This document shows, piece after piece, positions 1-63,739 of a stretch of DNA of 64,000 nucleotides. The notes beneath the pieces were generated by a model. The model was not told the origin of the DNA and made no database searches. It saw only the letters and a list, made by a program, of their open reading frames with translations. Source of the stretch: a virus. Positions within the stretch are counted from its first letter, which is position 1. Each line of letters starts with the position of its first letter. The position numbers and the translations under genes were made by a program. The stretch lies in the IMG/VR virus record IMGVR_UViG_3300009545_000018, positions 51,224 through 115,223 of that record, one strand, 5' to 3'.

Positions 1-72
1 ATTAAAGATTTTGATGTAAGTGAAGCATTTAATATTTTAATGAAATATAAAAATTTAACAGTGTTCTTATGA
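1..72 (+). CDS. 3' end of an upstream small ORF; C-terminus ...KYKNLTVFL* (KLKAF-tail family member, partial)
   Basis: In-frame translation of 1-72 ends LTVFL then TGA overlapping the next ATG at 69. Confidence 0.5.
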   Translation: MKDFDVSEAFNILMKYKNLTVFL

Positions 73-329
73 AATGCCCCTATTGTCATCATAATATCTA
101 TTATAGTATTCAGTGTGCTGATTCTGAACACGAGTTTTATTATGACTCAATAAATGCTTGGTATCTTATTATTGCCGGATATAAATTTAATATGATTGGG
201 GCTATTAATGGTAGATTTTATCTTGGTTCAAATCTTTACTTAAACAAAGATGTTACTATTAATAAATTTAACATTAATGATGCTGTTAAAACAATGATCA
301 AACTTAATAAATTAAATTGTTTTATATAA
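69..329 (+). CDS. small protein, KLKAF-tail family, N-terminal MKCPYC zinc-ribbon-like motif; tail KLNCFI
   Basis: ORF track; N-terminal CPxC; C-terminal family motif; ATGA overlap with neighbours. Confidence 0.6.
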   Translation: MKCPYCHHNIYYSIQCADSEHEFYYDSINAWYLIIAGYKFNMIGAINGRFYLGSNLYLNKDVTINKFNINDAVKTMIKLNKLNCFI

Positions 330-330
330 T

Positions 331-660
331 ATGAGTACACTTATTTATGAAGGACAGATTTTATCTGAGTGGAAACCTGATGAGGGGCATGGTTATAATT
401 GGGTAAGATATGAAAATAAGACTCAAAGTTTTATTGGATTAAATTGTGCAGATGGTATATTATATGACCTCTATAATAAAATAGTAACTGAATCAGATCT
501 TCGATGGAGAATATTTGGTAGAGGATTTTTACAAAAATGTGTAGACCAATATATTAAGATTTATGGATATCAACTATATCGTTATGGTGAATTAGATGAA
601 GTCAAAAATAATATTGATAAAGTTTTGATTTCATTCCCCAAATTAAAAGTTTTTATATGA
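331..660 (+). CDS. small protein, KLKAF-tail family (tail KLKVFI)
   Basis: ORF track; C-terminal motif; stop overlaps next start. Confidence 0.6.
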   Translation: MSTLIYEGQILSEWKPDEGHGYNWVRYENKTQSFIGLNCADGILYDLYNKIVTESDLRWRIFGRGFLQKCVDQYIKIYGYQLYRYGELDEVKNNIDKVLISFPKLKVFI

Positions 661-932
661 AGTGCCCTTATTGTAATCTTGATACTGTAGATAAAACTTT
701 ACATTTATCTTGTAAAGATAATTCACACTGGTTTGTCTTTACTAAAGGAAAACCCAATTATTGGTTCTTACATATTGACAATTTGCCAATATTTAACCAA
801 ATTGGACGTGGCGCAAGTGGATTTTATATAAAACATTTAATGGCAGAATTTATTACTAAATTAGAAAAAATAGATATCAAAAAGTCTAAAGAAATATTAA
901 TTAAGTATAATAAATTAAAAGCATTTATATGA
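657..932 (+). CDS. small protein, KLKAF-tail family, MKCPYC N-terminus (tail KLKAFI)
   Basis: ORF track; paralogous to 929-1204 (shared HWFV...PNYW...LPIFNQIG block). Confidence 0.65.
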   Translation: MKCPYCNLDTVDKTLHLSCKDNSHWFVFTKGKPNYWFLHIDNLPIFNQIGRGASGFYIKHLMAEFITKLEKIDIKKSKEILIKYNKLKAFI

Positions 933-1204
933 AATGTCCATATTGTAACAATAAAACTAAAAATGTAATTGATCAATTACATTGCCAATCAGATACTCAT
1001 TGGTTTGTTTGTGTTAAAAAACAGCCTAATTATTGGTATTTGCAAGTGACAGGTTTGCCAATATTTAACCAAATTGGATTGTGTAAACGCGGATATTATA
1101 TAAGAGGAATAACTGATAATAGTTTTATTCTAATAGAAAAAATAGATATCGAAGAATCTAAAGAATTTTTAATTAAAAAAAATAAGCTAATAGCATTTGC
1201 ATGA
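929..1204 (+). CDS. small protein, KLKAF-tail family, MKCPYC N-terminus (tail KLIAFA)
   Basis: ORF track; clear paralog of 657-932. Confidence 0.65.
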   Translation: MKCPYCNNKTKNVIDQLHCQSDTHWFVCVKKQPNYWYLQVTGLPIFNQIGLCKRGYYIRGITDNSFILIEKIDIEESKEFLIKKNKLIAFA

Positions 1205-1505
1205 TTTTAAAATGAAAAACATTAATTGTATTGTTTGTAATAAAGAAATGTTATTTATCCGAAATAGAGGTTTATTTGGATTATATACTTGTGAACTAGA
1301 TAACCATTATTTTGAAGTAACCGCTGAAGATTGGACATTTATTTTACAAATTGATAATTTGAAAATAAAATCTTTAGGCTATATATCAGGAAGACCTTTT
1401 TCATTTGAAATGAATAAAGGTCAACCAGGTATTCCTTTTGAATTTAAAATGTCTGAAACATATACGACTTTATTAAAGATAAATAAATTATTAAGCTTTA
1501 TGTAA
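1197..1505 (+). CDS. small protein, KLKAF-tail family (tail KLLSFM), internal CxxC
   Basis: ORF track; C-terminal motif variant. Confidence 0.55.
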   Translation: MHDFKMKNINCIVCNKEMLFIRNRGLFGLYTCELDNHYFEVTAEDWTFILQIDNLKIKSLGYISGRPFSFEMNKGQPGIPFEFKMSETYTTLLKINKLLSFM

Positions 1506-1534
1506 ATAATTTAATCAATATAAGGAAAATTAAA

Positions 1535-1723
1535 ATGCAAGAACAAGATTTTATTGGGTTAACTAAAAAGGGTGCACAACAAAAAGCTGAACAATTAAAC
1601 CTAATTTTTCGGCTTATAAGAGTGGATGATAAAACAATGTTCAGTTATCCATCTGATACACGAAACGATAGAGTTTGTGTGGAAATAGATAATGGTGCCG
1701 TAACTATTGCTAAACTACAATAA
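1535..1723 (+). CDS. hypothetical protein
   Basis: ORF with SD-like AAGGAAAA upstream. Confidence 0.5.
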   Translation: MQEQDFIGLTKKGAQQKAEQLNLIFRLIRVDDKTMFSYPSDTRNDRVCVEIDNGAVTIAKLQ

Positions 1724-2548: not shown

Positions 2549-3148
2549 ATGATTACTTTCGCTATTACTGGTAGCATCGCAACTGGGAAAAGTACAGTTA
2601 CTTCAACTATTAGAGATAAATATAATATCCCTATTGTTGACGCTGATGTGATAGCTCGAGAGGTTGTTGAAGTTGGTAGACCTTGTCTAACACATTTAGT
2701 ACATGCTTTTAGTGATAAAATTTTAAACCAAGATGGCACTTTAAATAGAAAGTATCTTGGTAATTTATGCTTTAATAATAAAGATATTCTTAATTCTGTT
2801 AATAGGATAGTAGGTCCCTTTATTAAAGAAGAATCTTTTAAACAAATTCAATCTCTTCATGAATCAGGACATTATTTAGTAGGATATGATAGTGCTCTTT
2901 TAATTGAGATGAAACTACATACATTATACAAACCTATAATAGTAGTAACTTGTTCTCCTGAAACTCAACTGAATAGGTTAATGAACCGCAATAATTTTTC
3001 TAAGGAAGAAGCTATGGCAAGAATTTCTTCCCAGATGAGTCTTAGTGATAAGGTCAAATATGCTGATCTTATCATTAATAATGACAGTGGATTAATGGAA
3101 CTCAATTCAGAGATCTATTCTGTTGTTAATAAATTAAAACAATTATAA
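2549..3148 (+). CDS. coaE: dephospho-CoA kinase
   Basis: P-loop AITGSIATGKSTV at N-terminus, size and layout typical of CoaE; start overlaps upstream stop. Confidence 0.75.
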   Translation: MITFAITGSIATGKSTVTSTIRDKYNIPIVDADVIAREVVEVGRPCLTHLVHAFSDKILNQDGTLNRKYLGNLCFNNKDILNSVNRIVGPFIKEESFKQIQSLHESGHYLVGYDSALLIEMKLHTLYKPIIVVTCSPETQLNRLMNRNNFSKEEAMARISSQMSLSDKVKYADLIINNDSGLMELNSEIYSVVNKLKQL

Positions 3149-3686: not shown

Positions 3687-3690
3687 AAAT

Positions 3691-4020
3691 ATGATAATAG
3701 ATTTATGTGATTTTCTAAAAGATAAACCACATATTTATGTGTCTGATTATAGCATAAACTATGGAAATAGTATTAGGTTTGTAGATGATAATGTAACAGG
3801 ATTTCTATTTAATATAGAGGTCGGTGATAAATTTATTATTGAATTGTTTAAAAATCCTAATAGAGTAAAATATTACGGGTACCACATAATAATCTGGGAT
3901 CATGAAAATGATTCTTCTATTTATGAAAAAGATAATATTACAGGCTCTTTAATCAAAGAGGAATTAATCAACTGTATCACATATTGTGAAAAATATTTAA
4001 ATTTAATTGTCTTCTCATGA
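3691..4020 (+). CDS. small protein, KLKAF-tail family variant (tail NLIVFS)
   Basis: ORF track; tandem array with overlapping stops. Confidence 0.5.
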   Translation: MIIDLCDFLKDKPHIYVSDYSINYGNSIRFVDDNVTGFLFNIEVGDKFIIELFKNPNRVKYYGYHIIIWDHENDSSIYEKDNITGSLIKEELINCITYCEKYLNLIVFS

Positions 4021-4319
4021 ATTCATTTTTACAATTAGATTGTGGAAAATATCCATATTATTTAGCAAACTATTATAATTATAGTATTAGTTATTTATTA
4101 GAAAATAATATAGAAGGCATTGTTTTTAATATAAATTTTCATCAACATAAAGTAAGTGTAATTTTTTCTTATGAAGAAAAATTATATGCTATATATTGTA
4201 GTACTAATAAAATGGTTGTTAATATATATGATTGTTATTCATTAAAACAAACATTAAATAAATGTCAAGAGTTAATTAATTATTATACTAGAATTGATAA
4301 ATTGAAATCATTTTCATAA
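4017..4319 (+). CDS. small protein, KLKAF-tail family (tail KLKSFS)
   Basis: ORF track. Confidence 0.55.
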   Translation: MNSFLQLDCGKYPYYLANYYNYSISYLLENNIEGIVFNINFHQHKVSVIFSYEEKLYAIYCSTNKMVVNIYDCYSLKQTLNKCQELINYYTRIDKLKSFS

Positions 4320-4323
4320 AATT

Positions 4324-4680
4324 ATGTTTGATAGAGAACTGCTTAAAAAAGAATATTATTCTAAGTTAAATCTTAATGGTGGAGAATTATATTTAAACTC
4401 TTCTTTTCAAAAAGATTTTAATAAATATTATGGATATATGTCTATCGTATATAAAAGTTTTAGTATAGAGGTATTAAGAGTTCCACATTTATTTAAAATA
4501 AATAACTTCAAAATTAAAGTTTGGGATCATACAAAAATATATTATAATCATTTTGCGGGAGATTATTATAAGTGTCATTTAGAAATTATCCATATACCAA
4601 AATCTCATTTATTAAATGAGCTTCAAAAGCAAATTGATTTCTTTCATAGAAGATATATTAAACTAGCAGCTTTTACATGA
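4324..4680 (+). CDS. small protein, KLKAF-tail family (tail KLAAFT)
   Basis: ORF track. Confidence 0.55.
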   Translation: MFDRELLKKEYYSKLNLNGGELYLNSSFQKDFNKYYGYMSIVYKSFSIEVLRVPHLFKINNFKIKVWDHTKIYYNHFAGDYYKCHLEIIHIPKSHLLNELQKQIDFFHRRYIKLAAFT

Positions 4681-4994
4681 GTGATGTTTTCAAAAAATCA
4701 TATTATAATCTTTTAGATTTAAAAGGTGGCAAAATAGATATTTGTGACTTTAACATTAAATATTTTAATAACTATAATAATTATGTTACCATACTAAATA
4801 TTAATTATGAAAAATACTATATATCATTAACTCATCAAACGAATATGATCTTCGCAGTTCATACTTTATTTTTTAATTCTTTTGATACTCCTAGTAGTAC
4901 TTATAATGTAAACAAATATAGTGTACTTACAACATTGCAAAACACTATTAATTTTAATTATAAAAAATATATAAAACTGTCAGTATTTACATAA
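4677..4994 (+). CDS. small protein, KLKAF-tail family (tail KLSVFT)
   Basis: ORF track. Confidence 0.55.
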   Translation: MSDVFKKSYYNLLDLKGGKIDICDFNIKYFNNYNNYVTILNINYEKYYISLTHQTNMIFAVHTLFFNSFDTPSSTYNVNKYSVLTTLQNTINFNYKKYIKLSVFT

Positions 4995-5242: not shown

Positions 5243-5521
5243 ATGAATGATTATTTAATTAAATTTTCTAAATCATTAAATTATCATAGTGGACATTTTA
5301 GTATTATTAGCAATAGTATTTATGTTGATTCTCCTAAAAAAATTTTAGATTATAAAATATGTTTTAATTTTACGAATAAAACAATTTTCATTTCTGATTT
5401 ATATACAAACATAAAATGGACTAAAATTAAAGATAATTTTACAGAAAAAGATGTGCAACCAACAATAGATTTTTATTATAATTATTATAATAAGTTACAA
5501 AAACTAAAGTCATTTATTTAA
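5243..5521 (+). CDS. small protein, KLKAF-tail family (tail KLKSFI)
   Basis: ORF track. Confidence 0.55.
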   Translation: MNDYLIKFSKSLNYHSGHFSIISNSIYVDSPKKILDYKICFNFTNKTIFISDLYTNIKWTKIKDNFTEKDVQPTIDFYYNYYNKLQKLKSFI

Positions 5522-5903: not shown

Positions 5904-5936
5904 CTTCCCATCGTATAACGGTGGGAAGCTTCTTTT
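5904..5936 (+). terminator. rho-independent terminator (CTTCCCA...TGGGAAG stem then TTCTTTTT)
   Basis: Perfect 7-bp inverted repeat followed by a T-run immediately after the stop at 5895. Confidence 0.6.
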
Positions 5937-6644: not shown

Positions 6645-7305
6645 TTTCGGGCCATATTTTTTCATGTTTTATTAAACTGATAGTGGCTTCAGAAACTGAA
6701 AATTGTTTAGCAATAATTCTATTTTTGACGCCACTATTGATTAGTAATTTAATTTGTTTAACATCATCCGATTTAAGTTTACCTTTATTTTCTTTCCATT
6801 CTATGGTTTGATGTTTTCCAAATTGTGAATGTCTTTCTCCACTTTGAGCTTCAGATAATGCTTTTTTGTGTTCATCACTAAAAGTTTTACCTTTACGTGA
6901 TTCAGACATTTTCTTTTTTGATTCTTCTGTATGTTTCCATCCAGAAATTCCAGAATTGGATCTACCGCCATTTCCTATATTATAAATTTCAATATTATTA
7001 TCCCTAGCATTTTTAATCTCAATCACTTCTAAATCAAGCGATTCTTGTTTAGTTGACACTGTATGAATAATTTCAAACTTAAAATTATCAATACTATATT
7101 TTGTAATAGCTGCATGAATAATATGAAATTTGCCAGGATATTTAGCTTTGCCGCCACGCGCAATTTTACGATGATCTAAAAATCTTTGCTTAGGATCTTT
7201 AGTCTCACCAACATAAAATTTACCGTTGATTAAATTTGTAATTTTATAAACATAAAACATATCAACAATTTGAGACTTTTTGTAAGGACAAATATCTAAT
7301 TGCAA
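6631..7305 (-). CDS. GIY-YIG homing endonuclease
   Basis: N-terminal GIY-YIG module (VYKITN...KFYVGETKD...R..H) plus NUMOD-like repeats (KGKTFSDEHKKALSEA); lone minus-strand gene among + strand genes. Confidence 0.7.
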   Translation of the reverse strand: MQLDICPYKKSQIVDMFYVYKITNLINGKFYVGETKDPKQRFLDHRKIARGGKAKYPGKFHIIHAAITKYSIDNFKFEIIHTVSTKQESLDLEVIEIKNARDNNIEIYNIGNGGRSNSGISGWKHTEESKKKMSESRKGKTFSDEHKKALSEAQSGERHSQFGKHQTIEWKENKGKLKSDDVKQIKLLINSGVKNRIIAKQFSVSEATISLIKHEKIWPEIKVS

Positions 7306-7629
7306 ATTATTTCTCTAGAAAATGCACAAGTTTCTATTAACAGAATAGATTTAATCTTTAAAGATTTTAAAGTAAACTCTAAGTTTCTTCAAAAAGAATC
7401 ATTAGATGATAGTGCTTTTATCTTTGTACTAAAGTACAACAATTTATTTGGCATAGATGCCTATGTAGCAAAAGATTATTCAATTTCTATTAGATTATTT
7501 CATTATAATAAATTTACTCATGAGCTTGTAGATTTACAATATGTGCCTCCATTTCATATTATTCCTGCCTTAAATGAAGTAATTAATTTTAATTATAAAT
7601 ATTTTGAAAAGATGAAAGTTTTTGCTTAA
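7300..7629 (+). CDS. small protein, KLKAF-tail family variant (tail KMKVFA)
   Basis: ORF track; paralogous to 7629-7997. Confidence 0.5.
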   Translation: MQIISLENAQVSINRIDLIFKDFKVNSKFLQKESLDDSAFIFVLKYNNLFGIDAYVAKDYSISIRLFHYNKFTHELVDLQYVPPFHIIPALNEVINFNYKYFEKMKVFA

Positions 7630-7997
7630 TGCTGGATCTTAAAGAGGGCGGCAATGTTACTGTTAATAAAATTGATGTTTTAGTTAAACATAACTTTATC
7701 ATTAATGATTTAGTTCTAAGAGAACTAGAATCAAATAGTGGTCAGACTTATATTTTCTGCATAAAATATCCTACATATTTTGCCATTGATTGTTATTTAG
7801 ATGTAAATAATATGATTAATATTAGGACATTTGTTTATATAAGCCCCTCTAATAGAACTGAACTTGACAGATCATATAATATAGAGTATAGTTTTATTGG
7901 TAAAAAATTAGTAAATATATCTGAATTTATTCCTACATTAAATTATATTATAAACTATAATCATAAAAAATATTTTACATTAAAAGCATTTGGATAA
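7629..7997 (+). CDS. small protein, KLKAF-tail family (tail TLKAFG)
   Basis: ORF track. Confidence 0.5.
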   Translation: MLDLKEGGNVTVNKIDVLVKHNFIINDLVLRELESNSGQTYIFCIKYPTYFAIDCYLDVNNMINIRTFVYISPSNRTELDRSYNIEYSFIGKKLVNISEFIPTLNYIINYNHKKYFTLKAFG

Positions 7998-10896: not shown

Positions 10897-11293
10897 TATT
10901 TATATTATCATAGCGACTATTCTTTGGGGAGTGGGAGCCATTTTTACTAAGGTAGGCGCTAACAATTTACATCCTTTAATGTTAGCATTAGTGGCAGAAT
11001 TGTTCTATATAATATTTGTACCTTTAGGTATTTGGTTTACTAAAACTCCAATTCAAATGAACACTACGGGATTTATTTTTGGATTTATTTCGGCGGCATG
11101 TGTTGGGGCAGGGTCCTTAGCTTATTACTTTGCTTTGCAGAAGGGTGCTGCGGGCACCATTGCAGCAGCAACAAGTGTATACCCTGTGTTAACTTTAATT
11201 ATTTCCGTTGCAATTTTAAACGAAGAAATAAGTTTAAGAAAAATAATTGGCTGCCTTCTTGCTATTATTTCTGTTATTATTATTTCAAAATGA
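10886..11293 (+). CDS. small integral membrane protein, EamA/DMT-like (4 TM)
   Basis: Four hydrophobic helices, Gly-rich. Confidence 0.45.
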   Translation: MSTNIYIIIATILWGVGAIFTKVGANNLHPLMLALVAELFYIIFVPLGIWFTKTPIQMNTTGFIFGFISAACVGAGSLAYYFALQKGAAGTIAAATSVYPVLTLIISVAILNEEISLRKIIGCLLAIISVIIISK

Positions 11294-11607
11294 AATGTCC
11301 TATTTGTCAGAAATTATTATTAACTAATATTAATGAAAAATGGTGTGAACAAACCGTTTTTACTAATGATAGTGCAAATTTACATTATGTAGTTTTTAAT
11401 ATTAAAAATAATAATATGGCTTTATTTTTTAAATATAAAGATCATTCATATGAATTTGACTATTTTTCTTCATCTCAAAAAACAAATATAACATATTATA
11501 TGGGCAAAACTACTCATGATAGTGATTTTTATTTAGGGGAAATGAAAAATCTAGAAGAACTCTATAAGGCAACACTTAAGTATTTAAAAAACAAAGCATT
11601 CTTATGA
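11290..11607 (+). CDS. small protein, KLKAF-tail family variant, MKCPIC N-terminus (tail KNKAFL)
   Basis: Start set at the ATG overlapping the upstream TGA; the track's longer 11098 start lies inside the previous gene. Confidence 0.55.
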   Translation: MKCPICQKLLLTNINEKWCEQTVFTNDSANLHYVVFNIKNNNMALFFKYKDHSYEFDYFSSSQKTNITYYMGKTTHDSDFYLGEMKNLEELYKATLKYLKNKAFL

Positions 11608-11921
11608 TAATGAAATGTCCCTTTTGTAAAGAAGAACTACAATTAGGTATAGAAATATATTTTTGTAATAATGATAAATTTATTTATCATGATGTAAGTT
11701 TTAATACAATAACAAAAGATATACATTTAGCATTTTTATCAGAAAATAAAGAAATAGAATATGAATTTGAATATCTTTCAGATAAAAAACTTGTAAGTCT
11801 ATTTGTGTACTCTAACAATCCAGTTACAAGTTTTCTATCTTTAAATTTCGGGGAAATAAATTCTTTGGATGAATTTTATACTAAAACAAAATCTTACGTC
11901 AAAAATATAGCATTTCAATGA
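11604..11921 (+). CDS. small protein, KLKAF-tail family variant, MKCPFC N-terminus (tail KNIAFQ)
   Basis: ORF track. Confidence 0.55.
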   Translation: MIMKCPFCKEELQLGIEIYFCNNDKFIYHDVSFNTITKDIHLAFLSENKEIEYEFEYLSDKKLVSLFVYSNNPVTSFLSLNFGEINSLDEFYTKTKSYVKNIAFQ

Positions 11922-20492: not shown

Positions 20493-20562
20493 TAATTTAT
20501 TTTTATAAAATGTCCCATCATTTGACGGCAGTAATTGGATAATTACAACATATTAATGTTTT

Positions 20563-24773: not shown

Positions 24774-24889
24774 AATTATAAATTATTTTAGGCGCCTCCC
24801 ATCGTCTAACGGCAGTAATATTATAATATAGACTTTAAGATAAGCTTTATTAATCCCCTCCTTTTTCTAATAGAGCTTATCTTAATTAT

Positions 24890-27075: not shown

Positions 27076-27082
27076 AATAATT

Positions 27083-32826: not shown

Positions 32827-32837
32827 GATTTAAATAA

Positions 32838-50514: not shown

Positions 50515-50838
50515 ATGAAAACCATGTTGTTTGAAAAAACTATTAATTTAGTTAAAACTTTAAGAGAAACATTCACAACTCGATGTTTACATAATCAAAA
50601 ATTGCCCCTTTTTAGTTGGTTACATAGAAATTCTAGTAACTTTTCGAATGAAGAGTTTGAAGAGTTTTGGAAATTTTTAGTAATTTTATTTAAATATAAA
50701 TATAAGGATATGAGCTTATTTTATGAAGCAGGAGAGTCTCCATTAGAAATGTTTGATTTTAGAGCAAACAAAGATCAAATCAATGACTTTATTTCTTTAT
50801 TAGAAAATAAAATTAATAAATTGAAAGCTTTTATTTAA
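50515..50838 (+). CDS. small protein, KLKAF-tail family (KINKLKAFI); paralog of 52210-52497
   Basis: Identical tail KINKLKAFI. Confidence 0.55.
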   Translation: MKTMLFEKTINLVKTLRETFTTRCLHNQKLPLFSWLHRNSSNFSNEEFEEFWKFLVILFKYKYKDMSLFYEAGESPLEMFDFRANKDQINDFISLLENKINKLKAFI

Positions 50839-51674: not shown

Positions 51675-51894
51675 TTTTAAAGTTGGAGATTTTGTTAAAT
51701 TGGCACTTGTAGCTAAAGATGTTATGCCTTTAAATTATTCTCTGTATCAATTTAGTATTGGTAAAATTACTCATATACAATATCATGTGATACAACAATG
51801 TAATTATATATCAGTGTGTTGGTCTAATGACACCAGAACTTATGTTTATATGGATAAACATTTAGTTAAAACAAATTTAAAAGCTTTCGTGTAA
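51667..51894 (+). CDS. small protein, KLKAF-tail family variant (NLKAFV)
   Basis: Start set at the ATG overlapping the PARG stop (ATGAATGA); the track start lies inside PARG. Confidence 0.5.
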   Translation: MNDFKVGDFVKLALVAKDVMPLNYSLYQFSIGKITHIQYHVIQQCNYISVCWSNDTRTYVYMDKHLVKTNLKAFV

Positions 51895-51907: not shown

Positions 51908-52213
51908 ATGAAAATAGAAAATGATACAGAAATATATGTTCCAAATGAATGTTACTTTGGAATTGATGAAAGTGAAGATTATCCAACGACCGTTCTTATT
52001 GTGAATAAAGATTATTGGGATAAAAATCAATGTACCAACGAATCTATTGGAGATCAATCGTTTGAATCAACTATTATTCCAAATGATTTTTATAATGTTA
52101 TGGAAGCCACTTGGGAAACCCAAATGCCTATGGAAAAAGCCAAACTAATTTTAGAGAAATCTGGTTTTACTTTTAATAAATCATTATCTGAGTTTGTAGC
52201 AGATTATGTATGA
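51908..52213 (+). CDS. hypothetical protein; paralog of 50190-50510
   Basis: SD AAGGAAATATTAAAATG. Confidence 0.5.
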   Translation: MKIENDTEIYVPNECYFGIDESEDYPTTVLIVNKDYWDKNQCTNESIGDQSFESTIIPNDFYNVMEATWETQMPMEKAKLILEKSGFTFNKSLSEFVADYV

Positions 52214-52497
52214 TACCACAAGAATTTCATAATAAAGCCATAGAAATACTTACAAAATGGAGGAAAACTCCTTGTATGTATGCTTCTGATTATGAAGCTT
52301 GGATGACTATGGTTCTTGCAATTATGGAATTTGTTGATGTAAGAAATGAATCTCCTGGATTTTTTAAAAAACATATAGGTACTTATGGTAATTCATATCT
52401 AAATTTAGATAAGAAATTAGATGATGAATGGGCTCATAAAGTTATAGATGAAGCAATTAATATTATTAAAATAAATAAATTAAAAGCTTTTATTTAA
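52210..52497 (+). CDS. small protein, KLKAF-tail family (KINKLKAFI)
   Basis: ORF track. Confidence 0.55.
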   Translation: MIPQEFHNKAIEILTKWRKTPCMYASDYEAWMTMVLAIMEFVDVRNESPGFFKKHIGTYGNSYLNLDKKLDDEWAHKVIDEAINIIKINKLKAFI

Positions 52498-52557: not shown

Positions 52558-53247
52558 ATGACAAAAGAAAATTATACATTAGTAGGCGTAGTAATAGATC
52601 GTAGCGGGTCTATGAGTTCATTAGTTTCTGATACAATTGGTGGATTTAATTCCCTTTTAAAAGAACAAAAAAACGAGCCTGGACAAGCTTCTGTTAGTTT
52701 ATGTTTATTTAGTACAGATTATAAACTTACTCATTATGATGATATTAATCAGGTTGAAGAATTAAATGAAATTTCTTATAGACCAGGTGGTGGTACTGCA
52801 CTATTAGATGCTTTGGGTACTACAATTGATGAGATTGGAGTTAGATTAGCTGCTAAAAATGAAGAAGATAGACCATCTAAAGTAATTATTATAGTGATTA
52901 CTGATGGTCAGGAAAATTCATCTAGAAAATATTCTAAAAATAAAATTAAAGAAATGATTTCTCACCAAGAAGAAAAATATAATTGGTCATTTACTTTTAT
53001 TGGCGCCAATATGGATGCAGTTAGTGCTGGCGACTCTATTGGGTTTTCTGCCAATAATTCTTATAATTATTCCGCTTCCGCTGGTGGGACTCAAAAAGTA
53101 TATGCTACCATGAATAATTCTTTAAAAAGAGCTAGAGTTATGGGAAGTGGCATGAAATCTAATGAATCCTTATTTACTCCAGAAGAGGCGCAAAGCTTAT
53201 TAGATTCTGATAAAAAGGTGAAAGATAATGCAGAAAATAAGTCATAA
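52558..53247 (+). CDS. vWA-domain protein (MIDAS DRSGSMSS)
   Basis: Start at MTKEN with SD AAGAGGATATTTATG; MIDAS motif plus TDGQEN. Confidence 0.6.
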   Translation: MTKENYTLVGVVIDRSGSMSSLVSDTIGGFNSLLKEQKNEPGQASVSLCLFSTDYKLTHYDDINQVEELNEISYRPGGGTALLDALGTTIDEIGVRLAAKNEEDRPSKVIIIVITDGQENSSRKYSKNKIKEMISHQEEKYNWSFTFIGANMDAVSAGDSIGFSANNSYNYSASAGGTQKVYATMNNSLKRARVMGSGMKSNESLFTPEEAQSLLDSDKKVKDNAENKS

Positions 53248-53719
53248 AATATTAGTGCTATTTCTGTTGTGCTTTGGATGTTCTTCTGTAACTTCTACTA
53301 TAAAAGATCCTGTAACTACCAAACATTCTTTACAAGTAGATCGAATATTAAATAATCCAGAAGCACCACACCTGGCAGACCCTTCTTCAGAAGCAGAAAG
53401 AATTTGTATAAAACAAGGTGGCAGAATTATAGGTCTAAATCATAGTTCTTTTAATTGTCAATTAGATAATGAAACTATTTTTTCTTATTATATAATACCC
53501 ATTTCTTCAGATGAAAGTAAGATTGTTGGAATGCGAGTTTTCTTTCATCATGATAATGGTTCTTTATTACAACTTGCCACCCAAAAATTTGGACAACCTA
53601 CTTTATGGAAAGATAATGTTGCTTCTTGGTATAATGAAAATAATGGAGTAGTTATGTCTATAGAATCTCATGATAAAATCACTATTATCAGTTTTTATAT
53701 TGCAGCGGCATTTATGTAA
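53228..53719 (+). CDS. lipoprotein
   Basis: Lipobox LCFGCSS. Confidence 0.5.
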   Translation: MQKISHKILVLFLLCFGCSSVTSTIKDPVTTKHSLQVDRILNNPEAPHLADPSSEAERICIKQGGRIIGLNHSSFNCQLDNETIFSYYIIPISSDESKIVGMRVFFHHDNGSLLQLATQKFGQPTLWKDNVASWYNENNGVVMSIESHDKITIISFYIAAAFM

Positions 53720-53916
53720 TGACAAGTGAAAAATGGGTCGCCGGAGAAAATAGTATTTTTTGGTTTCTGCCAGGAACCGATCTGTTACATCGTATAGATG
53801 GTCCAGCTATAGAATATTCTCATGGTGTTAATTATTGGTACTATAATGGCATTCAAATTGACTGTCAATCTCAAGAAGAGTTCAATCGTAAAATTAAACT
53901 CTTAGCATTTTTATAG
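53719..53916 (+). CDS. MORN-like repeat mini-protein with family tail (KLLAFL)
   Basis: HRIDGPA and WYYNG repeat elements as in 16230-16568. Confidence 0.5.
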   Translation: MTSEKWVAGENSIFWFLPGTDLLHRIDGPAIEYSHGVNYWYYNGIQIDCQSQEEFNRKIKLLAFL

Positions 53917-54944: not shown

Positions 54945-55244
54945 ATGGATCAAAAAGATTTAATAATACAAGAATTACATAATATCATTTATAAATATGG
55001 CGTCAAAGCTTTAATGGAATTTGAGTCTAGGTTTCCGTGTGATCAATTAAGTTGTGTTAAAGTTCCATATAATCATATTCCTAACAATTCAAAATTCATA
55101 GAGAGAAATTTTGGATATGGAATTTTTGTTTGGCAAGGAATTTCTTATAATGATGCATATTTATTTAGAATTCAATCATATGAGAAATTTTGGATCGATT
55201 GGAATCAATTTAAACGTTATCTAGAATTATTAGCATTTACATGA
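54945..55244 (+). CDS. small protein, KLKAF-tail family variant (ELLAFT)
   Basis: ORF track. Confidence 0.5.
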   Translation: MDQKDLIIQELHNIIYKYGVKALMEFESRFPCDQLSCVKVPYNHIPNNSKFIERNFGYGIFVWQGISYNDAYLFRIQSYEKFWIDWNQFKRYLELLAFT

Positions 55245-55603
55245 AGACTAAAAAAGATATTGCAGATTTACTTCGACCTATGCTTGAAAAATATGGAAGA
55301 GAATATCTTGTTAATTTTAACTTATTGATTAATAACGTTACTTGGGACGGCACTCTTAGTGAGTATGTTTCTATTCCTTTTAATAACATAAGTGAACACA
55401 GAGTTAATTGTAGTTCTTTTTTAGAGCTTAAACAACATATTAATAATTTAGAGATGAAAAGAACTTGGGGAAATTCGTGGACATATATTGAAGTTCCATC
55501 TGATTGTAATGATTTTTTTCATCTTAGAATTGATGGTGTTGAAAATTTTTACATTAAGTGGGAAAAATATCAAAGATACTTAAATTTGAAAGCTTTTATA
55601 TAA
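55241..55603 (+). CDS. small protein, KLKAF-tail family (NLKAFI)
   Basis: ORF track. Confidence 0.5.
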   Translation: MKTKKDIADLLRPMLEKYGREYLVNFNLLINNVTWDGTLSEYVSIPFNNISEHRVNCSSFLELKQHINNLEMKRTWGNSWTYIEVPSDCNDFFHLRIDGVENFYIKWEKYQRYLNLKAFI

Positions 55604-55947
55604 TGACAACAGAAGAAGATTTTAGAAAAAGTTTATCTTGTATTATTGAAAAATTTGGTCCAGAACATTTTAGTGTTATTTTAACAATTGCACAAAATTC
55701 AAGCTTTTATTTTAAAAGTAAAAATATGTTATTAATACCATTTAAATCTAATTCTTCGTTTAAAAGAGTAAATGTTAAATATGAGGAGTGTGCCGCTGTT
55801 GTATGGAAAAATTATGCTAATCATAAATATTTTCCATTTCCTCCAGATTGTGATGATTGGTATTGTATGCTTGGTGATTCTTTTGAAAGTATACTAACTC
55901 TGTATAATGTTGGTAGCAAAATGATAAAAATGAAAGCTTTTATATAA
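55604..55947 (+). CDS. small protein, KLKAF-tail family (KMKAFI)
   Basis: Start at the ATG following the upstream TAA (TAATG); the track start is inside the previous gene. Confidence 0.5.
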
Positions 55948-56441
55948 TGACAATTGGAATATTTGCTGGCAGTTTTGATCCTATTACTTTAGGGCATTTA
56001 GATATTATAAATCGTAGTTTAACTTTTTTAGATAAATTAATAGTGTTAATAGCAGTTAACCCAAATAAGAAAACCACTTTCTCTTTAAATAAAAGAAAAT
56101 CTTTAATTATAGAGAGTCTTTTCGAAACATCAACGAGATCTGCAGATGTTATAGTGGATTCATATGATGGATTGGTTGTTAATTATGCTAAGTTACATGG
56201 AGCTTCAGTTTTGATTAGAGGTGTTCGTACCTCAACAGATTTTGAATATGAAACTAATTTAGCTAATGGTAATAGATTATTAGCACCAGAGATTGAAACT
56301 GTCTTTATACCAACTCGTCCAGAATTATCTGTAGTATCTTCTTCCATGGCTAAAGAAATTAATAAATGGAATGGTGATGTATCTAAATTAGTTACAGTTA
56401 AAGTTAAAAATGCTCTGAATGAAATTGTGAGTTTAAAATGA
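55947..56441 (+). CDS. coaD: phosphopantetheine adenylyltransferase
   Basis: N-terminal GIFAGSFDPITLGHLDII (T/HxGH nucleotidyltransferase motif of CoaD), about 160 aa. Confidence 0.85.
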   Translation: MTIGIFAGSFDPITLGHLDIINRSLTFLDKLIVLIAVNPNKKTTFSLNKRKSLIIESLFETSTRSADVIVDSYDGLVVNYAKLHGASVLIRGVRTSTDFEYETNLANGNRLLAPEIETVFIPTRPELSVVSSSMAKEINKWNGDVSKLVTVKVKNALNEIVSLK

Positions 56442-56989: not shown

Positions 56990-57079
56990 GGGGAAGTAGC
57001 TCAGCCGGCCAGAGCGCTTTACTGTTTTATAAAACGAATAGTGAAGAGGTCGATGGTTCAAATCCATCCTTCCCCACCA
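56990..57079 (+). tRNA. tRNA-like gene (90 nt, CCA encoded) with canonical acceptor, D and T arms but a 20-nt anticodon loop
   Basis: GGGGAAG/CTTCCCC acceptor, D arm GCTC-AGCCGGCCA-GAGC, T arm GATGG-TTCAAAT-CCATC, variable AGGTC; anticodon stem CTTTA/TGAAG enclosing CTGTTTTATAAAACGAATAG. Confidence 0.5.
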
Positions 57080-59096: not shown

Positions 59097-59174
59097 AGGC
59101 TTCTAGCTTAACTTTTAGAGCAAGGGACATAAAGAGTCCCGTGGATCTTGGTGTAAATCCAAGGGAGCCTGCCA
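59097..59174 (+). tRNA. tRNA-like gene (CCA encoded) with unusual anticodon loop ATAAAGA and T loop TGTAAAT
   Basis: Acceptor AGGCTTC/GGAGCCT, D arm GCTT...GAGC, anticodon stem GGGAC/GTCCC, T stem CTTGG/CCAAG, G-CCA. Confidence 0.45.
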
Positions 59175-59469: not shown

Positions 59470-59558
59470 TGATGTTTGATAAGTAATCACGCCAGAAACA
59501 TGATTTATCATGTTTGCCCTGATCAGCCTGGTAGTTAGGTGCAAATCCTAAGCATCAC
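59470..59558 (+). ncRNA. tRNA-like element (about 89 nt) with D-loop-like AGCCTGGTAG sequence and TGCAAAT loop
   Basis: 5' GTGATGT pairs with 3' GCATCAC flanking a TTAGG-TGCAAAT-CCTAA arm. Confidence 0.35.
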
Positions 59559-59925
59559 AACAACTGAGTTTATATGCCCGAATCCCTATATTGGTTAAGA
59601 CATATAGACAATAGTCCGGTCTTAGGCTACCATTAAGGAGTAATCCTTTTAGAGACCACTGCTTCGGTGTGGGCAAACCCGGCATTTAGGTGGAAAGCCT
59701 AATAAATTTTGCTTGATTAAATAGTTTCTTGCTACAAGATCAACGGTGTACAACGAATCTTGCTATTTAATTGGGAAGTCTTATAATTGTGGACTTGGTG
59801 AAACAGGTATAAGGCGAATTACGCTCGATATTGGATAAAACTAACATTGGGCGCCATGAATCAAATCCGTATAGGAATACATTCGGAAAAAATAAATCTT
59901 ATACACTACTTGTTGATTCAATTAT

Positions 59926-60316: not shown

Positions 60317-60394
60317 TGCCCACTAACTTAATTACATAAAAGTAAGGTTGTCGGGGCGCCAAATTTACGTTCTGGTCGTCTAAATAATTAGGAC

Positions 60395-60450
60395 ATCTCC
60401 GCGAAAGGGGAAGATATTGGAGAATTACCAATCTGGAGCGCCATAAGTTA
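60395..60450 (+). repeat. copy A of an about 60-75 nt structured repeat (GGACATCTCC...GGAGAATTACCAA...GCGCCA)
   Basis: About 80% identical to copy B at 60553-60608, same order of hairpins TTGG-AGAATTR-CCAA. Confidence 0.5.
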
Positions 60451-60552
60451 GTGGCTGGAAATCATTTAAGCGAGTTCAAATGCAATAACAGTCCGCCTAA
60501 TTGCTCGTATATTAGGTAACTTAATTTTATGCCCCTGTCGTCGTAAAAAGTC

Positions 60553-60608
60553 AGGACATCTCCAGTAATAGGAGAAGATGTTGGAGAATTGCCAACTGGG
60601 GGTGCCAA
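60553..60608 (+). repeat. copy B of the structured repeat
   Basis: Direct comparison with copy A. Confidence 0.5.
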
Positions 60609-61007
60609 AGGCAAGTAAGGACCAGGAAGCCTTATGAGCTGCTGGTTTTTCATATAGGGAACTAGCCTGGTTAGTCCTATATGAGAACCAACCAATGTCT
60701 TTAAATAAAGAAATTTATATAAGGACACCATGATTAATTTGTGCAGCTGACTTATATTGGATTTCGCGATCTGATATATGAGTGCTGGAAAATACGGAAA
60801 GTTGGAAAACTGATGCACACCGTATAAGTTAACTAAATCACTAACTGTTATTATCTACGCGAATAGATAAAAACAAAGTAATTAGTTAATTATAATTAAT
60901 CAAAAACTTTAGCAAATGCAGTAAGGATTACATTGGTTATAGTCAATCGAAAGATTGATGGTGGGTATCGATTCCCACAGTATCTTTACAAAACTTGTTG
61001 CTATTAT

Positions 61008-61144
61008 TCCGAGGTACGTCTAATGGTAAGACACGCGGCTGTGGGAACTATAGGTTAATAATAAGTCCCGTTCGATTCGGGCAGTTCCAAGAATAACCGC
61101 GCGGTGGTAACACTTTGTAGGTTCGAGTCCTACCCTCGGAGCCA
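61008..61144 (+). ncRNA. extended tRNA-like gene (137 nt, CCA encoded): tRNA-His-like (GUG) frame with a roughly 51-nt insertion in the anticodon loop containing its own mini T-arm-like hairpin
   Basis: Acceptor TCCGAGG/CCTCGGA perfect, T arm GTAGG-TTCGAGT-CCTAC, anticodon stem CGCGG/CCGCG enclosing CTGTGGG + GAACTATAGG...CCCGTTCGATTCGGG... Confidence 0.45.
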
Positions 61145-61334
61145 TTATATTAAATAAAAGGAAAGTACTATGCAAGTTCAAATACATCTTTACAATCAAT
61201 CCAATCCTATTGTGTTGGAACATGTAACTAATGCTTATCAAAAAGGTGATTTTTATTGTGTTATGTTTGCTAGTAAACTAGTTCAAAAGTTTCCAATTCA
61301 ACATATATTTAGAATAATAGAAACTCCTTAATGT

Positions 61335-61610
61335 ATGATTTCAAAATTAACAATCAAATCTTATGGAGTGACAGTAACTCTTCCCAGTGAAATTCTAATT
61401 TTAGAAGATTGTATCTGGGCTAAAACTGGTGAACATTTAGCTTTAGGAAAAGACAAAAATATTATGGGTAATGATTGTTTTATTGTCCTTAGAAAAAACG
61501 GAGTTGTTATTTCTGGACCTTCTCCTTTAATTCATTCGGTTGGAGCAAATAGTTTAATTTATCAAGAGTGTTCGGTAGAAAAATATTATAAAATGAAAGC
61601 ATTTTTGTAA
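61335..61610 (+). CDS. small protein, KLKAF-tail family (KMKAFL)
   Basis: ORF track. Confidence 0.55.
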   Translation: MISKLTIKSYGVTVTLPSEILILEDCIWAKTGEHLALGKDKNIMGNDCFIVLRKNGVVISGPSPLIHSVGANSLIYQECSVEKYYKMKAFL

Positions 61611-61879
61611 TGATCAAATATGTTGATGATAACGGTAAAGAAAAAATTTTACCTGAAAAAATAGTTATACTAAAATGTCCTGATAGTTGGCTTATTGAGC
61701 CTGGAGATTATATAGAATTTATTCATACATATTATCTTCATATGAGGATCTCCAGCTTTGAAATCAAAGTTTTAAAAGGATATCATAAGAATAAAATATT
61801 TGATTTACTCTTTAGTCATTTATCTAAGATTGAATATGTAAGCATAGAAAAGTTTGAAAAACTAAAGGCGTTTGTTTAA
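61610..61879 (+). CDS. small protein, KLKAF-tail family (KLKAFV; codons CTA/AAG/GCG)
   Basis: ORF track. Confidence 0.55.
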   Translation: MIKYVDDNGKEKILPEKIVILKCPDSWLIEPGDYIEFIHTYYLHMRISSFEIKVLKGYHKNKIFDLLFSHLSKIEYVSIEKFEKLKAFV

Positions 61880-62107
61880 ATGGAAACCAAGTGGATTTTA
61901 GTAACACAACAAAACTCTGTTTACTATAATAAAATCTTAGAATTAAAAGAAGGTTGGACATCAACCATTTATAATGGGACTATTGTTTGGTTTATTGAGT
62001 CAGTAAATGGTCAAGTTAGACATTATCCGGATTGGTTTGAGTTAAACGATTTGCCAACACATACAGTAGTAACAAAGGATGCCCTTAATTTATTAGCCTT
62101 TTTATAA
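61880..62107 (+). CDS. small protein, KLKAF-tail family variant (NLLAFL)
   Basis: ORF track. Confidence 0.5.
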   Translation: METKWILVTQQNSVYYNKILELKEGWTSTIYNGTIVWFIESVNGQVRHYPDWFELNDLPTHTVVTKDALNLLAFL

Positions 62108-62486
62108 AAAACTTTAGATGAATGCCGCAATGGAATACATATACAACCGATAGCTGAATGTCGCAAGACATTCAATATCTCCGATTTCATAAAAGAGATA
62201 TGAACCAACCTAAAGGAATTCCTATAAGGATAAACTATGTGACTGACAAACTTGAAGCCAGTTAAAGCTCAAGTCCTCTATGGTATTATTAGGATAAGAT
62301 ATACTGTGCTATTGGATAAAATTAATCGCACTTTCTATTGCATTCTTGTCATCTAATTAACTTTTCATTTAAATGAATGCCGATTCGGGAATACATTAAA
62401 CACAAAGATACTGCAGCATGTGCCAGGCTAATCCACATGTACCTTAGGAGTACTCAGGGTAAAGTGTACCGACTTCTCAATCACCT

Positions 62487-62786
62487 TTGTCATTTAACAT
62501 GAATTACTTAAAACACACATTAGATAACGGCACAGTATTAGAAATACCAGAAGAATTTATGGTATTAGATAATTTACCATCAGAAGATCTACATTACAAA
62601 GTAGAATTAATTCTTGATTTTATTAGAGGCTGGGTATTTAAAATAACCCATATAAATGGTTTAGAACTAACTCAATATAAAGAAGATCCAACATGGATTT
62701 GTTATTTTAGTCCAGAAAAGATTTTTAATAAAAAAATTATACCATGTTCACTTGAAAAATTTAACAATATGAAAGCATTTTTATAA
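62487..62786 (+). CDS. small protein, KLKAF-tail family (NMKAFL)
   Basis: ORF track. Confidence 0.55.
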   Translation: MSFNMNYLKHTLDNGTVLEIPEEFMVLDNLPSEDLHYKVELILDFIRGWVFKITHINGLELTQYKEDPTWICYFSPEKIFNKKIIPCSLEKFNNMKAFL

Positions 62787-62980
62787 TGTCAAAAGAAGAA
62801 AAACCATTATCACCTTATGAGATAAGAAGATTAGGTCATTGCAAAGAAACAGAGCAGTGTGTTGATGATCTATATTGTAATTGTCCTTGTTTACCTTGTT
62901 CTAAGCAAGATTGTTTTAGACCAGGATGTAAATGTGGTAGAACTCATCCATATAAAAATTAATGTACTTACATATCCATG
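62786..62980 (+). CDS. small (64 aa) Cys-rich protein (CxxxxxC...CNCPCLPC...CFRPGCKCG)
   Basis: Manual translation from the ATG overlapping the upstream TAA (TAATG); not in the supplied ORF track, so possibly a reading error. Confidence 0.35.
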
Positions 62981-63231
62981 ATAAAGATGTTCCATCTTCT
63001 ATTTTAGTTTTAGAAGACTCAAAAACTCACACCATTGAAAAGAATTCTCATTTTGTTTTTAGAAAAATTAAGTATAATGAATATTGTGTTGATTTTTTTA
63101 ATGGTAAAGATAATCGTTATTCTTATGCAAGATATTCAGAAGATGATTTATATCGTATGTTTTTTGATGGCAAATTAAAATATAAAGAATTTTCTTTAGC
63201 CCAGTTTAATAAAATAAAAGCATTTTTATGA
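62962..63231 (+). CDS. small protein, KLKAF-tail family (KIKAFL)
   Basis: ORF track. Confidence 0.55.
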   Translation: MYLHIHDKDVPSSILVLEDSKTHTIEKNSHFVFRKIKYNEYCVDFFNGKDNRYSYARYSEDDLYRMFFDGKLKYKEFSLAQFNKIKAFL

Positions 63232-63494
63232 AATATTATATTATTGAGGATACAGTAGTTCCAAGTGAGTTCATTATAATTCATGATACAGATTTATGTA
63301 GAATTTATAATATTTATCCAGAGTTTAATAGAAATATTTATACTCATAAGAATTTTTTTGATTATATAAGCTACGATCTTGATTATAATTTTATTTCGAT
63401 TGCTACCATGCCAGGCAGTCAATTACTAAGTTATATTGATAATAATAAGTTATTTCCAATAGAAAAGTTTAATAGTTTAAAGGCTTTCTTATGA
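63228..63494 (+). CDS. small protein, KLKAF-tail family (SLKAFL)
   Basis: ORF track. Confidence 0.55.
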   Translation: MKYYIIEDTVVPSEFIIIHDTDLCRIYNIYPEFNRNIYTHKNFFDYISYDLDYNFISIATMPGSQLLSYIDNNKLFPIEKFNSLKAFL

Positions 63495-63739
63495 AATATA
63501 TTCAAACTGCTAAATATAATTATCCAGAAGAAATATTTGTAACACAAAGTTTCTTTAGACACGAGTGGACTAATAAACACTTGGTATTAAAACAATATAA
63601 TGAATATGTATTAAGTGTATTTTTAATAAATGGGGAAGAGCCCTCACATCCAATGGCTATTACCAATAATTTCATTCATGAGGCTAATTTTTTAGAAATG
63701 TCTTTAGAAAGATATTTAAAGATTAAATCTTTCTTATAA
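63491..63739 (+). CDS. small protein, KLKAF-tail family (KIKSFL)
   Basis: ORF track. Confidence 0.55.
   Translation: MKYIQTAKYNYPEEIFVTQSFFRHEWTNKHLVLKQYNEYVLSVFLINGEEPSHPMAITNNFIHEANFLEMSLERYLKIKSFL

Follow-up and report, generated by a model that had tools for sequence, protein, structure and literature searches.

A conserved C-terminal tail shared by dozens of small, unrelated-looking proteins of an uncultured huge phage and its relatives

Terminal sorting and docking signals are a known kind of element, and so are lineage-specific expansions in jumbo phages. In phage T4, the capsid-targeting sequence (CTS) is carried by the internal proteins IPI, IPII, and IPIII, and the internal-protein genes flank a tRNA cluster. 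In poxviruses, the ankyrin/PRANC (F-box-like) proteins join a variable N-terminal target-binding part to a constant C-terminal element with Skp1 as its receptor. Encapsulin cargo-loading peptides and the peroxisomal targeting signal 1 (PTS1) are short C-terminal peptides on unrelated folded proteins, with 1 receptor in each system. The closest published parallel that we found to the locus described here is in Bacillus phage G, which carries a lineage-specific expansion of ~35 small zinc-ribbon proteins (Iyer et al. 2021, PMC7824862); its authors suggest that these proteins act as transcription factors or bind DNA. We analyzed a window of 64,000 nucleotides (the whole stretch from position 51,224 to 115,223 of IMG/VR virus record IMGVR_UViG_3300009545_000018) from an uncultured huge phage with a genome of roughly 450 kb, and identified 43 complete open reading frames (ORFs) on the + strand, plus 1 more cut by the window edge, that share a short C-terminal tail centered on the string KLKAF.

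The tail resembles the T4 CTS as a putative terminal signal of ~10 residues on small, compact, otherwise unrelated, and fast-evolving proteins encoded in a variable region near tRNA genes. Unlike the T4 signal, which is N-terminal and cut by the prohead protease at L/I-x-E, it is C-terminal and has > 40 carriers compared with a handful in T4. With encapsulin cargo-loading peptides and PTS1 it shares its place at the C-terminus of unrelated folded proteins, and with PTS1 also a strict register to the free C-terminus; however, there is no sequence resemblance to either, the tail is predicted to lie in an ordered helix, and its last 3 residues (small-Phe-x, n = 43) do not follow the PTS1 pattern [SAC]-[KRH]-[LM]-COOH. 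The poxvirus PRANC proteins, also a large viral family, likewise pair a variable N-terminus with a short, constant C-terminal element, by which every member connects to a single host machine, but they belong to a eukaryotic virus and have a longer C-terminal domain and a known receptor. The likeness is a design analogy only.

Phage G is, like the source of the window, a huge AT-rich phage with dozens of small CPxC zinc-ribbon proteins that have a conserved C-terminal helix. The ending there is ...WKENDRYLAKILSK rather than KLKAF, and the phage G proteins have 1 paralogous body, whereas the tail described here is also found on non-zinc-ribbon bodies. In the phage G genome (JN638751), the zinc-ribbon expansion lies at 26153-28126 and 32804-33106, with the conserved C-terminal helix '...(Y)WKENDRYLAK(I/K)L(S/A)K'. 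Homology between the 2 expansions was considered but is not supported, with hhalign aligning the CPxC knuckle only (12 columns, 27% probability). Phage G is an independent case of a CPxC knuckle combined with a conserved terminal helix in a huge AT-rich phage.

The members end in [KR]-Φ-x-K-[LM]-K-[A/V/S]-F-x-stop, where Φ is a hydrophobic residue. In a right-justified logo (n = 43), counting back from the last residue as -1, position -9 was K/R in 37 members, -6 was K in 32, -5 was L/M in 38, -4 was K in 27, -3 was A/V/S in 41, and -2 was F in all 43, with I/L/S/T at -1 and with Y (15), K (7), F (6), I (6), and L (5) as the commonest residues at -8. Conservation was confined to the last ~11 residues: nothing was conserved upstream of about -11, and the N-termini were not conserved across body groups. 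The net charge of the bodies ranged from -11 to +4, and that of the tail was neutral or +1 to +5. Members were 65-141 aa in length (median 99), and none exceeded 145 aa, compared with 37 of 81 other genes (p = 4e-9). Together they occupy 12,714 nt and account for 43 of 124 non-overlapping + strand ORFs, in agreement with an initial annotation of this DNA that had put them at roughly one third of the ORFs. Its figure of about 45 members needs a small correction to 43 complete members and 1 cut by the edge, although the family itself is real, and every array that it listed is present at the coordinates it gave. Many of the members lie in tandem arrays among tRNA genes, as follows.

1-72 (+): further member, 3' end only (cut by the window edge), ...MKYKNLTVFL; full ORF seen at L046:447-728
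69-329 (+): member, CPxC zinc-ribbon type, 86 aa, ...IKLNKLNCFI
331-660 (+): member, 109 aa, ...SFPKLKVFI
657-932 (+): member, CPxC zinc-ribbon type, 91 aa, ...KYNKLKAFI; six beta strands and a C-terminal helix at 74-89 in the AlphaFold2 (AF2) model
929-1204 (+): member, CPxC zinc-ribbon type, 91 aa, ...KKNKLIAFA
1212-1505 (+): member, CxxC zinc-ribbon-like, 97 aa, ...KINKLLSFM; start from gene call
3691-4020 (+): member, Tyr/Asn-rich body, 109 aa, ...KYLNLIVFS
4017-4319 (+): member, 100 aa, ...RIDKLKSFS
4324-4680 (+): member, 118 aa, ...RYIKLAAFT
4677-4994 (+): member, 105 aa, ...KYIKLSVFT
5243-5521 (+): member, 92 aa, ...KLQKLKSFI
7300-7629 (+): member, 109 aa, ...YFEKMKVFA
7629-7997 (+): member, 122 aa, ...KYFTLKAFG
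11290-11607 (+): member, CPxC zinc-ribbon type, 105 aa, ...KYLKNKAFL; start from gene call
11604-11921 (+): member, CPxC zinc-ribbon type, 105 aa, ...SYVKNIAFQ
13506-13805 (+): member, CPxC zinc-ribbon type, 99 aa, ...KYKKLKAFL
13818-14120 (+): member, CPxC zinc-ribbon type, 100 aa, ...RYQKLKAFT
16230-16568 (+): member, MORN-like repeats, 112 aa, ...SSQEEFKKLLKLKAFW; beta-hairpin repeats and a helix at 99-111 in the AF2 model
16568-16807 (+): member with the weakest tail, helical-looking body, 79 aa, ...RKLALSAFI; start from gene call
18994-19290 (+): member, 98 aa, ...KKTKLKAFL; start from gene call
19290-19571 (+): member, 93 aa, ...KKSKLKAFL
19571-19846 (+): member, 91 aa, ...KKRKLIGFL
19843-20193 (+): member, 116 aa, ...KLYKMKAFI
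20190-20492 (+): member, 100 aa, ...KIYKLKAFI
34953-35255 (+): isolated member, 100 aa, ...KRIKLIAFI
38417-38842 (+): isolated member, two CxxC knuckles, 141 aa (longest), ...RWSKLQVFS; directly upstream of the 5'-3' exonuclease gene
44755-45003 (+): member, helical-looking body, 82 aa, ...KIGNLKAFI
45009-45239 (+): member, 76 aa, ...KYKSMQAFS
45236-45472 (+): member, 78 aa, ...RYQKFYVFS
45473-45709 (+): member, 78 aa, ...RLLKLKSFT
50515-50838 (+): member, 107 aa, ...KINKLKAFI
51625-51894 (+): member, up to 89 aa, ...VKTNLKAFV; start uncertain, ORF overlapping the end of the PARG gene
52210-52497 (+): member, helical-looking body, 95 aa, ...KINKLKAFI
53719-53916 (+): member, short MORN-like, 65 aa, ...SQEEFNRKIKLLAFL
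54945-55244 (+): member, 99 aa, ...RYLELLAFT
55241-55603 (+): member, 120 aa, ...RYLNLKAFI
55603-55947 (+): member, 114 aa, ...KMIKMKAFI; start from gene call
61335-61610 (+): member of the 61335-63739 array, 91 aa, ...EKYYKMKAFL
61610-61879 (+): member, 89 aa, ...EKFEKLKAFV
61880-62107 (+): member, weak tail, 75 aa, ...DALNLLAFL
62499-62786 (+): member, 95 aa, ...EKFNNMKAFL; start from gene call
62962-63231 (+): member, 89 aa, ...AQFNKIKAFL
63228-63494 (+): member, 88 aa, ...EKFNSLKAFL
63491-63739 (+): member, 82 aa, ...ERYLKIKSFL

The tail family is real and far beyond chance. Among 136 ORFs, 33-35 loose matches to the tail were observed, compared with 0.09 predicted from amino-acid composition. 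With a leave-one-out position-specific scoring matrix (PSSM), 41 of 43 members scored at least 5 bits, compared with 1 of 17,530 internal 11-mers, and this score was reached by 0 of 57 minus-strand ORF ends and by no non-member + strand end. The register is strict, with exactly 1 residue following the Phe in 13 of 13 strict K[LM]KAF matches and in 33 of 36 loose ones. ORF 53228-53719, which ends in AAAFM and has a lipoprotein-like N-terminus, scored 0.3 bits and was not counted. Also left out of the count was ORF 28138-28476 (+; 112 aa, ending ...VLQLKALW), in which Leu replaces the invariant Phe and which scored -4.8 bits; this ORF is perhaps a degenerate relative.

It is as a peptide that the tail is under selection, as the initial annotation had proposed from synonymous variation. 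Synonymous codons for the conserved Lys, Leu, Ala, and Phe residues were used in genome-wide proportions. Over the last 9 codons, pairwise nucleotide identity was 0.60, 0.63, and 0.45 at codon positions 1, 2, and 3, compared with 0.28, 0.31, and 0.40 in the body codons, so that positions 1 and 2 are conserved and position 3 is at background. Identity in the 12 nt downstream of the stop codon was 0.33, which equals background.

We compared the bodies of the 43 proteins after removing the tail. Without their last 8 residues they formed ~29 phmmer clusters, with the CPxC...C-x4-H zinc-ribbon group as the largest, and without the last 12 residues the best hhalign probability among 10 body groups was 9.7%; at the level of sequence, these 10 groups are without detectable mutual homology. 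The CPxC...C-x4-H pattern was invariant in an 8-member alignment and in a 15-gene array of a 394-kb relative, and the AF2 model of the zinc-ribbon type shows beta hairpins at these putative metal-binding knuckles. The MORN-like type comprises 2 of the 43 members (16230-16568 and 53719-53916), with repeated 'WYxNGxLHRxDGPA' units, and several members are all-helical in look. A MORN-repeat hidden Markov model (HMM) matched the 2 MORN-like members at 1e-31 and 3e-9 and all others at E > 0.3; with the repeats undetected in the other 41 members, a degenerate MORN origin of every beta-type body is not supported. Within arrays, members are diverged tandem paralogues, and the 7 ORFs of the 61335-63739 array share an N-terminal motif. 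The family is a mix of local duplication and of 1 tail on unrelated-looking bodies: the initial annotation was right that the tail sits on bodies without detectable homology, but its single divergent family is in part ordinary tandem paralogy.

Structure prediction gave high confidence for the 2 body types modeled with AF2, with a predicted local distance difference test (pLDDT) score of 95.8 for the MORN-like member and 92.8 for the zinc-ribbon member. In both models, a beta-rich body leads into one C-terminal helix, 13-16 residues long, and the tail forms the end of this helix, its last 2 turns; tail pLDDT was ~89-93 in both, falling to 64-70 at the last 1-2 residues. A free peptide is at odds with this placement of the tail in a confident C-terminal helix on 2 different bodies. 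The beta-hairpin repeats of the MORN-like model had MORN proteins as top Foldseek matches (probability 0.97, E = 0.027), and the structural neighbors of the zinc-ribbon body were weak and of a generic beta-meander kind. Hydrophobic positions in the tail (-11, -8, -5, and -2) follow a 3-residue period, and the hydrophobic moment peaked at 120 degrees (0.44, compared with 0.26 in controls), while at the alpha-helical 100 degrees it was 0.25-0.26, equal to internal control segments. This pattern argues against a lipid-binding surface helix and fits a helix lying in a groove, either of its own protein or of a partner.

No described family accounts for the tail, as had been supposed: nothing in Pfam, PHROG, NCBIfam, PDB, or the literature searched gave a match that covers it. 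In Pfam-A, no model covers the tail or unites the members, and the only matches were scattered zinc-ribbon ones on N-termini, below the curated cut-offs. PHROGs returned 4 models, each matching a single member and none annotated, and NCBIfam returned 0 families for the members; tail-bearing proteins from relatives had no family matches either. The tail string was absent as a motif from the literature searched, and no relevant paper on paralogues or C-terminal motifs was found there besides that on phage G. A Bacteroides type VI secretion system (T6SS) adapter ending ...KANKLKSFLxx (9jg8_A) was the sole PDB profile match and was rejected, its E value of 1.1 being at chance level and a paper related to it offering nothing of relevance.

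The tail extends beyond this genome: a metagenome search found tail arrays in related huge-phage contigs of 94-446 kb as well. Using degenerate DNA patterns for the tail, we identified true members only in large phage contigs of IMG/VR, namely 3300047994_000374 (394 kb), 3300036715_004471 (446.5 kb), 3300025914_000017, 3300037475_000199, 3300037475_000211, 3300033066_001625, 3300033066_001740, 3300033069_001588, 3300008255_000103, and 3300010938_000951; ~60 unrelated AT-rich viral loci, which were chance matches to the DNA patterns and served as negative controls, had essentially no ORFs with the tail. The 394-kb contig had > 30 members in 3 sampled loci, including 15 consecutive zinc-ribbon-plus-tail genes ending ...AFL, and 3300025914_000017 had 14 members in 10 kb. 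The pattern of K/R at -9, K/N at -6, L/I/M at -5, a small residue at -3, and F at -2 was the same in 4 lineages of 27-35% GC, and Phe was found at -2 in all of ~93 sequences (43 from the window and ~50 from relatives).

In cultured phages no tail was found, and tblastn with a window member gave nothing significant in 50,697 phage records. Nor was a tail found in cellular genomes, where the matches in genome collections were MORN-like proteins from many phyla, none with the tail. Among 5.8 billion proteins, the non-MORN bodies tested (the zinc-ribbon and 61335 groups) matched only this phage and 2 IMG/VR contigs, and this lack of homologues outside the phage group fits fast-evolving effectors. 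MORN-like proteins ending ...SQEEFEKLLKLKAFW were identified in many metagenomic clusters and in syntenic relatives, while in cellular and most metagenomic MORN-like proteins the helix begins with the same '(S/T)xEEF' but goes on differently; since MORN-like proteins elsewhere end differently, the KLKAF ending is an add-on specific to this phage group. A 36-position tail profile searched against 1.84 billion representatives gave 0 matches at E <= 0.001, a result uninformative on absence because independent relatives scored only 6-22 bits in a local test, too little for any such tail-only profile to become significant.

Other C-terminal modules were observed in the same phage group. A syntenic relative (L042; ENA ERZ27247916 k141_2244422) has few KLKAF tails, on MORN-like proteins only. 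At L042:30-4082 it carries a tandem array of 11 small ORFs (84-175 aa) with variable N-terminal bodies, some of them SH3-like (weak DUF4314/Cul7 matches), that share a C-terminal module of ~35 residues, '(K)IIPDIPxDPTLPxLMAGHLQDRxRKR..', with no Pfam family. The presence of a different module on this array suggests that swappable C-terminal modules are a theme of the phage group. Small paralogue pairs and arrays were also seen in which the ending is related to the tail yet distinct, with '...LDPKLW[IA]FK' at L047:13104-13576, which is 10 kb downstream of the window, and '...DPKL[KR]AFT' in the 394-kb relative (L123); the latter is apparently a tail sub-type with Asp-Pro in front.

We favor the reading, to which we assign about an even chance, that the tail is a portable C-terminal tag read by 1 shared partner. 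The tail would be the last 2 turns of a short C-terminal helix, ending 1 residue after the invariant Phe, and the partner, phage- or host-encoded, would read it in trans. Each member would have 2 parts, with a small, fast-evolving, variable body doing a specific job and the constant tail bringing every member to the same place or machine. Reading in trans is inferred, as is the nature of the reader; it is suggested by the fixed register, by the conservation of the tail, including its non-core Lys/Arg residues, independently of the body, by the MORN fold having no need of the tail, and by its restriction to small proteins. Where a free C-terminus is read, the distance to the chain end is typically fixed. 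To all appearances, no C-terminal tag common to dozens of unrelated small proteins of a phage has been described before.

For a concrete use of such a tag, our tentative first choice, itself of fairly low probability, would be cargo sorting by analogy with the T4 CTS, with the members packed into the head to be co-injected; next in rank would come a degron or a tether to a protease, followed by clamp and membrane binding. With similarly low probability, the tail may be a sorting code routing > 40 small effectors per genome to 1 destination, which would make it the first C-terminal cargo signal described in a bacteriophage. The effectors might go to the assembling capsid and be co-injected with the DNA, the tail then being an enlarged C-terminal counterpart of the T4 CTS, or they might go to a phage-built compartment or machine.

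Several observations weigh against a tag read by a shared partner. The placement of the tail in a confidently modeled helix (pLDDT 89-93) suggests that its hydrophobic residues are packed against the body of the same protein and are not free to meet a partner. The identity of the last residue follows array or body type (S/T in 3691-4994, L/V in 61335-63739, and W in the MORN-like members), as an intra-protein contact or shared ancestry would give, and much of the family is tandem paralogy, so that descent explains part of the sharing. For packaging in particular, the arrays lie among auxiliary metabolic genes and not structural genes, and the logo showed no conserved protease site before the tail, with the Glu of a prohead-protease L/I-x-E site in only 8 of 43 members at -12 and 8 of 43 at -10. 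To our knowledge, > 40 cargo species would be unprecedented.

Because the helix is predicted so confidently and the last residue co-varies with body type, the role of the tail could still be mainly structural. In that case all or most members would descend from 1 ancestor of 'beta-sheet plus C-terminal helix' type, and the helix would be the hydrophobic core element of these tiny folds, unable to drift as the rest does, and would have no partner. We regard this as unlikely, even though it survives best among the alternatives. The 3-residue hydrophobic period and the 120-degree moment would fit a helix half-wrapped by the protein's own sheet, and the tandem paralogy of the arrays is clear. However, the invariant Phe, the small residue at -3, and the Lys/Arg at -9 and -6 recur across zinc-ribbon, MORN-like, and helical bodies, whose unrelated cores need none of them, and packing gives no reason for a stop exactly 1 residue past the Phe. 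MORN-like proteins elsewhere fold with other C-terminal helices, and the MORN-repeat HMM found no sign that the remaining bodies come from that fold.

The strict register also bears on a C-terminal degron or protease tether, by which an AAA+ unfoldase/protease or a ring peptidase would take up the members for scheduled turnover, or the members would act as adaptors or decoys. Known signals of this kind include the ...RRKKAI signal of MuA for ClpX, the C-terminal ClpX-binding peptide of SspB, the C-terminal tail ...RFIL of HslU, and the Hb-Y-X motif of proteasome activators, in which the penultimate residue is always aromatic and the final one varies. The tail recalls MuA in its basic residues before a hydrophobic end, and Hb-Y-X in its hydrophobic or small residue, invariant penultimate aromatic, and variable last residue, and its carriers are small. 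In contrast to Hb-Y-X, the aromatic is Phe and never Tyr (43 of 43), and the carriers are small putative effectors, not ATPases. The tail has no sequence identity with any characterised degron, and its last 3 residues ([A/V/S]-F-x, n = 43) are not those of the ssrA-like L-A-A-COOH signal for ClpX. Moreover, it is predicted to be helical and ordered and not floppy, dozens of proteins sharing 1 degron would compete mutually, and no matching protease or unfoldase gene was seen in the window, where the only peptidase is the M50 membrane protease at 14132-14866. We rate a degron or tether as rather improbable.

Much further down we place a motif for a sliding clamp (PIP-box-like) or another replisome hub, in which the C-terminal L-x-x-F-Φ after basic residues would plug a hydrophobic clamp pocket. 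PIP boxes adopt a 3-10 helix, and archaeal and T4-type proteins often carry them at the C-terminus. The tail matches the [LIM]-x-x-[FY]-[FY] core of these motifs in L(-5)-x-x-F(-2)-Φ(-1), in the 3-residue period, in the basic flanks, and in its C-terminal location, and 1 member lies immediately upstream of the flap endonuclease gene. Against the full Q-x-x-[LIM]-x-x-[FY]-[FY] pattern, however, there is no Gln at -8 among the 7 commonest residues, which cover 41 of 43 members, and the last residue is aromatic in ~1 of 43; > 40 small competitors for 1 clamp are implausibly many and make little biological sense. Equally remote is an amphipathic helix of MinD/FtsA type targeting the proteins to the cell membrane. 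The C-terminal position, the positive net charge (+2 to +4), and the alternation of basic and hydrophobic residues would suit it, but random internal segments have an equal moment at 100 degrees, and lipid binding needs no invariant Phe, small residue at -3, or fixed chain end. Finally, a nucleotide signal at gene ends (a promoter, a ribosome-binding or re-initiation site, or a recombination site), with the peptide as by-product, might be suspected from the 22 of 43 members that overlap the next gene start as ATGA or TAATG, but it is effectively refuted and excluded for practical purposes by the genome-wide codon usage, by the background identity at position 3 and after the stop, and by the other 21 members, which keep the tail without an overlapping downstream gene.

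The window is ~30% GC, with genes almost all on the + strand and 13 tRNA genes. Exact-protein matches were found in ENA, JGI, and Logan assemblies, in contigs as long as 447,763 bp, one of them measuring 399,192 bp, and no close cultured phage was found for the window. The larger genes encode auxiliary functions typical of huge phages, including lysyl-tRNA synthetase, glutathionylspermidine synthase, a Ro60/TROVE-vWA protein, PARG, dephospho-CoA kinase, aspartate decarboxylase, cytidylyltransferases, DNA methyltransferases, and the flap endonuclease, along with the M50 peptidase, a LemA/TPM/SPFH cluster, and homing endonucleases. Four of these genes, encoding dephospho-CoA kinase, aspartate decarboxylase (PanD), and 2 cytidylyltransferase-like proteins (2549-3148, 35270-35665, 55947-56441, and 15064-16233, all +), could be parts of a phage-encoded coenzyme A (CoA) or pantothenate route. 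In the LemA/TPM/SPFH cluster, ORFs 31414-31608 and 32838-33965 (+) have a Gly/Ser-rich tail, GGGDSGGSGASSD[FW], in common; the latter is a TPM-domain protein, and the former, which overlaps with the SPFH gene, is possibly not a true gene.

Among the tRNA calls, ARAGORN placed a tRNA of undetermined type with a 4-base anticodon (gttt) at 56990-57079 (+; Rfam tRNA 59.5 bits), which could have an odd anticodon loop or an intron. The calls of tRNA-Phe(aaa) at 59097-59174 (+) and tRNA-Ile(tat) at 63844-63919 (+) were both below the Rfam tRNA gathering score and are doubtful, or else are unusual tRNAs. Two stretches between tRNA genes, 59473-59925 (453 bp) and 60317-61169 (853 bp), showed neither a convincing + strand ORF nor any Rfam family reaching the gathering score. 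The intergenic motif CCCATCNTNTNACGG was identified in 3 copies, compared with 0.06 expected, at 5907-5921, 20514-20528, and 24798-24812 (+). The first copy lies inside a terminator-like hairpin and the other 2 just upstream of tRNA-Arg and tRNA-Leu, one of these directly after the 18994-20492 array; the motif may be a transcript-processing or terminator element. A strict sigma-70 pattern gave 2 sites on the + strand, compared with 0.6 expected, too few to assign a temporal class to the arrays.

Huge phages carry hundreds of small genes with functions that are still obscure, and the tail turns > 40 unrelated-looking ORFans into 1 experimentally tractable class, with the same peptide conserved in several related giant phages from different metagenomes. 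The 'major phage-host interface system' of the initial annotation is speculation. If the tail is only a structural helix, the members still form a large undescribed protein family that shows how little of a small fold must stay constant. If it is a sorting or packaging signal, it would add a new principle to phage cell biology and serve as a practical tag, and with a true sorting code foreign proteins could be loaded into huge phages by means of a programmable tag. The partner, once found, would tell whether these phages sort, package, tether, or destroy an effector repertoire through 1 handle.

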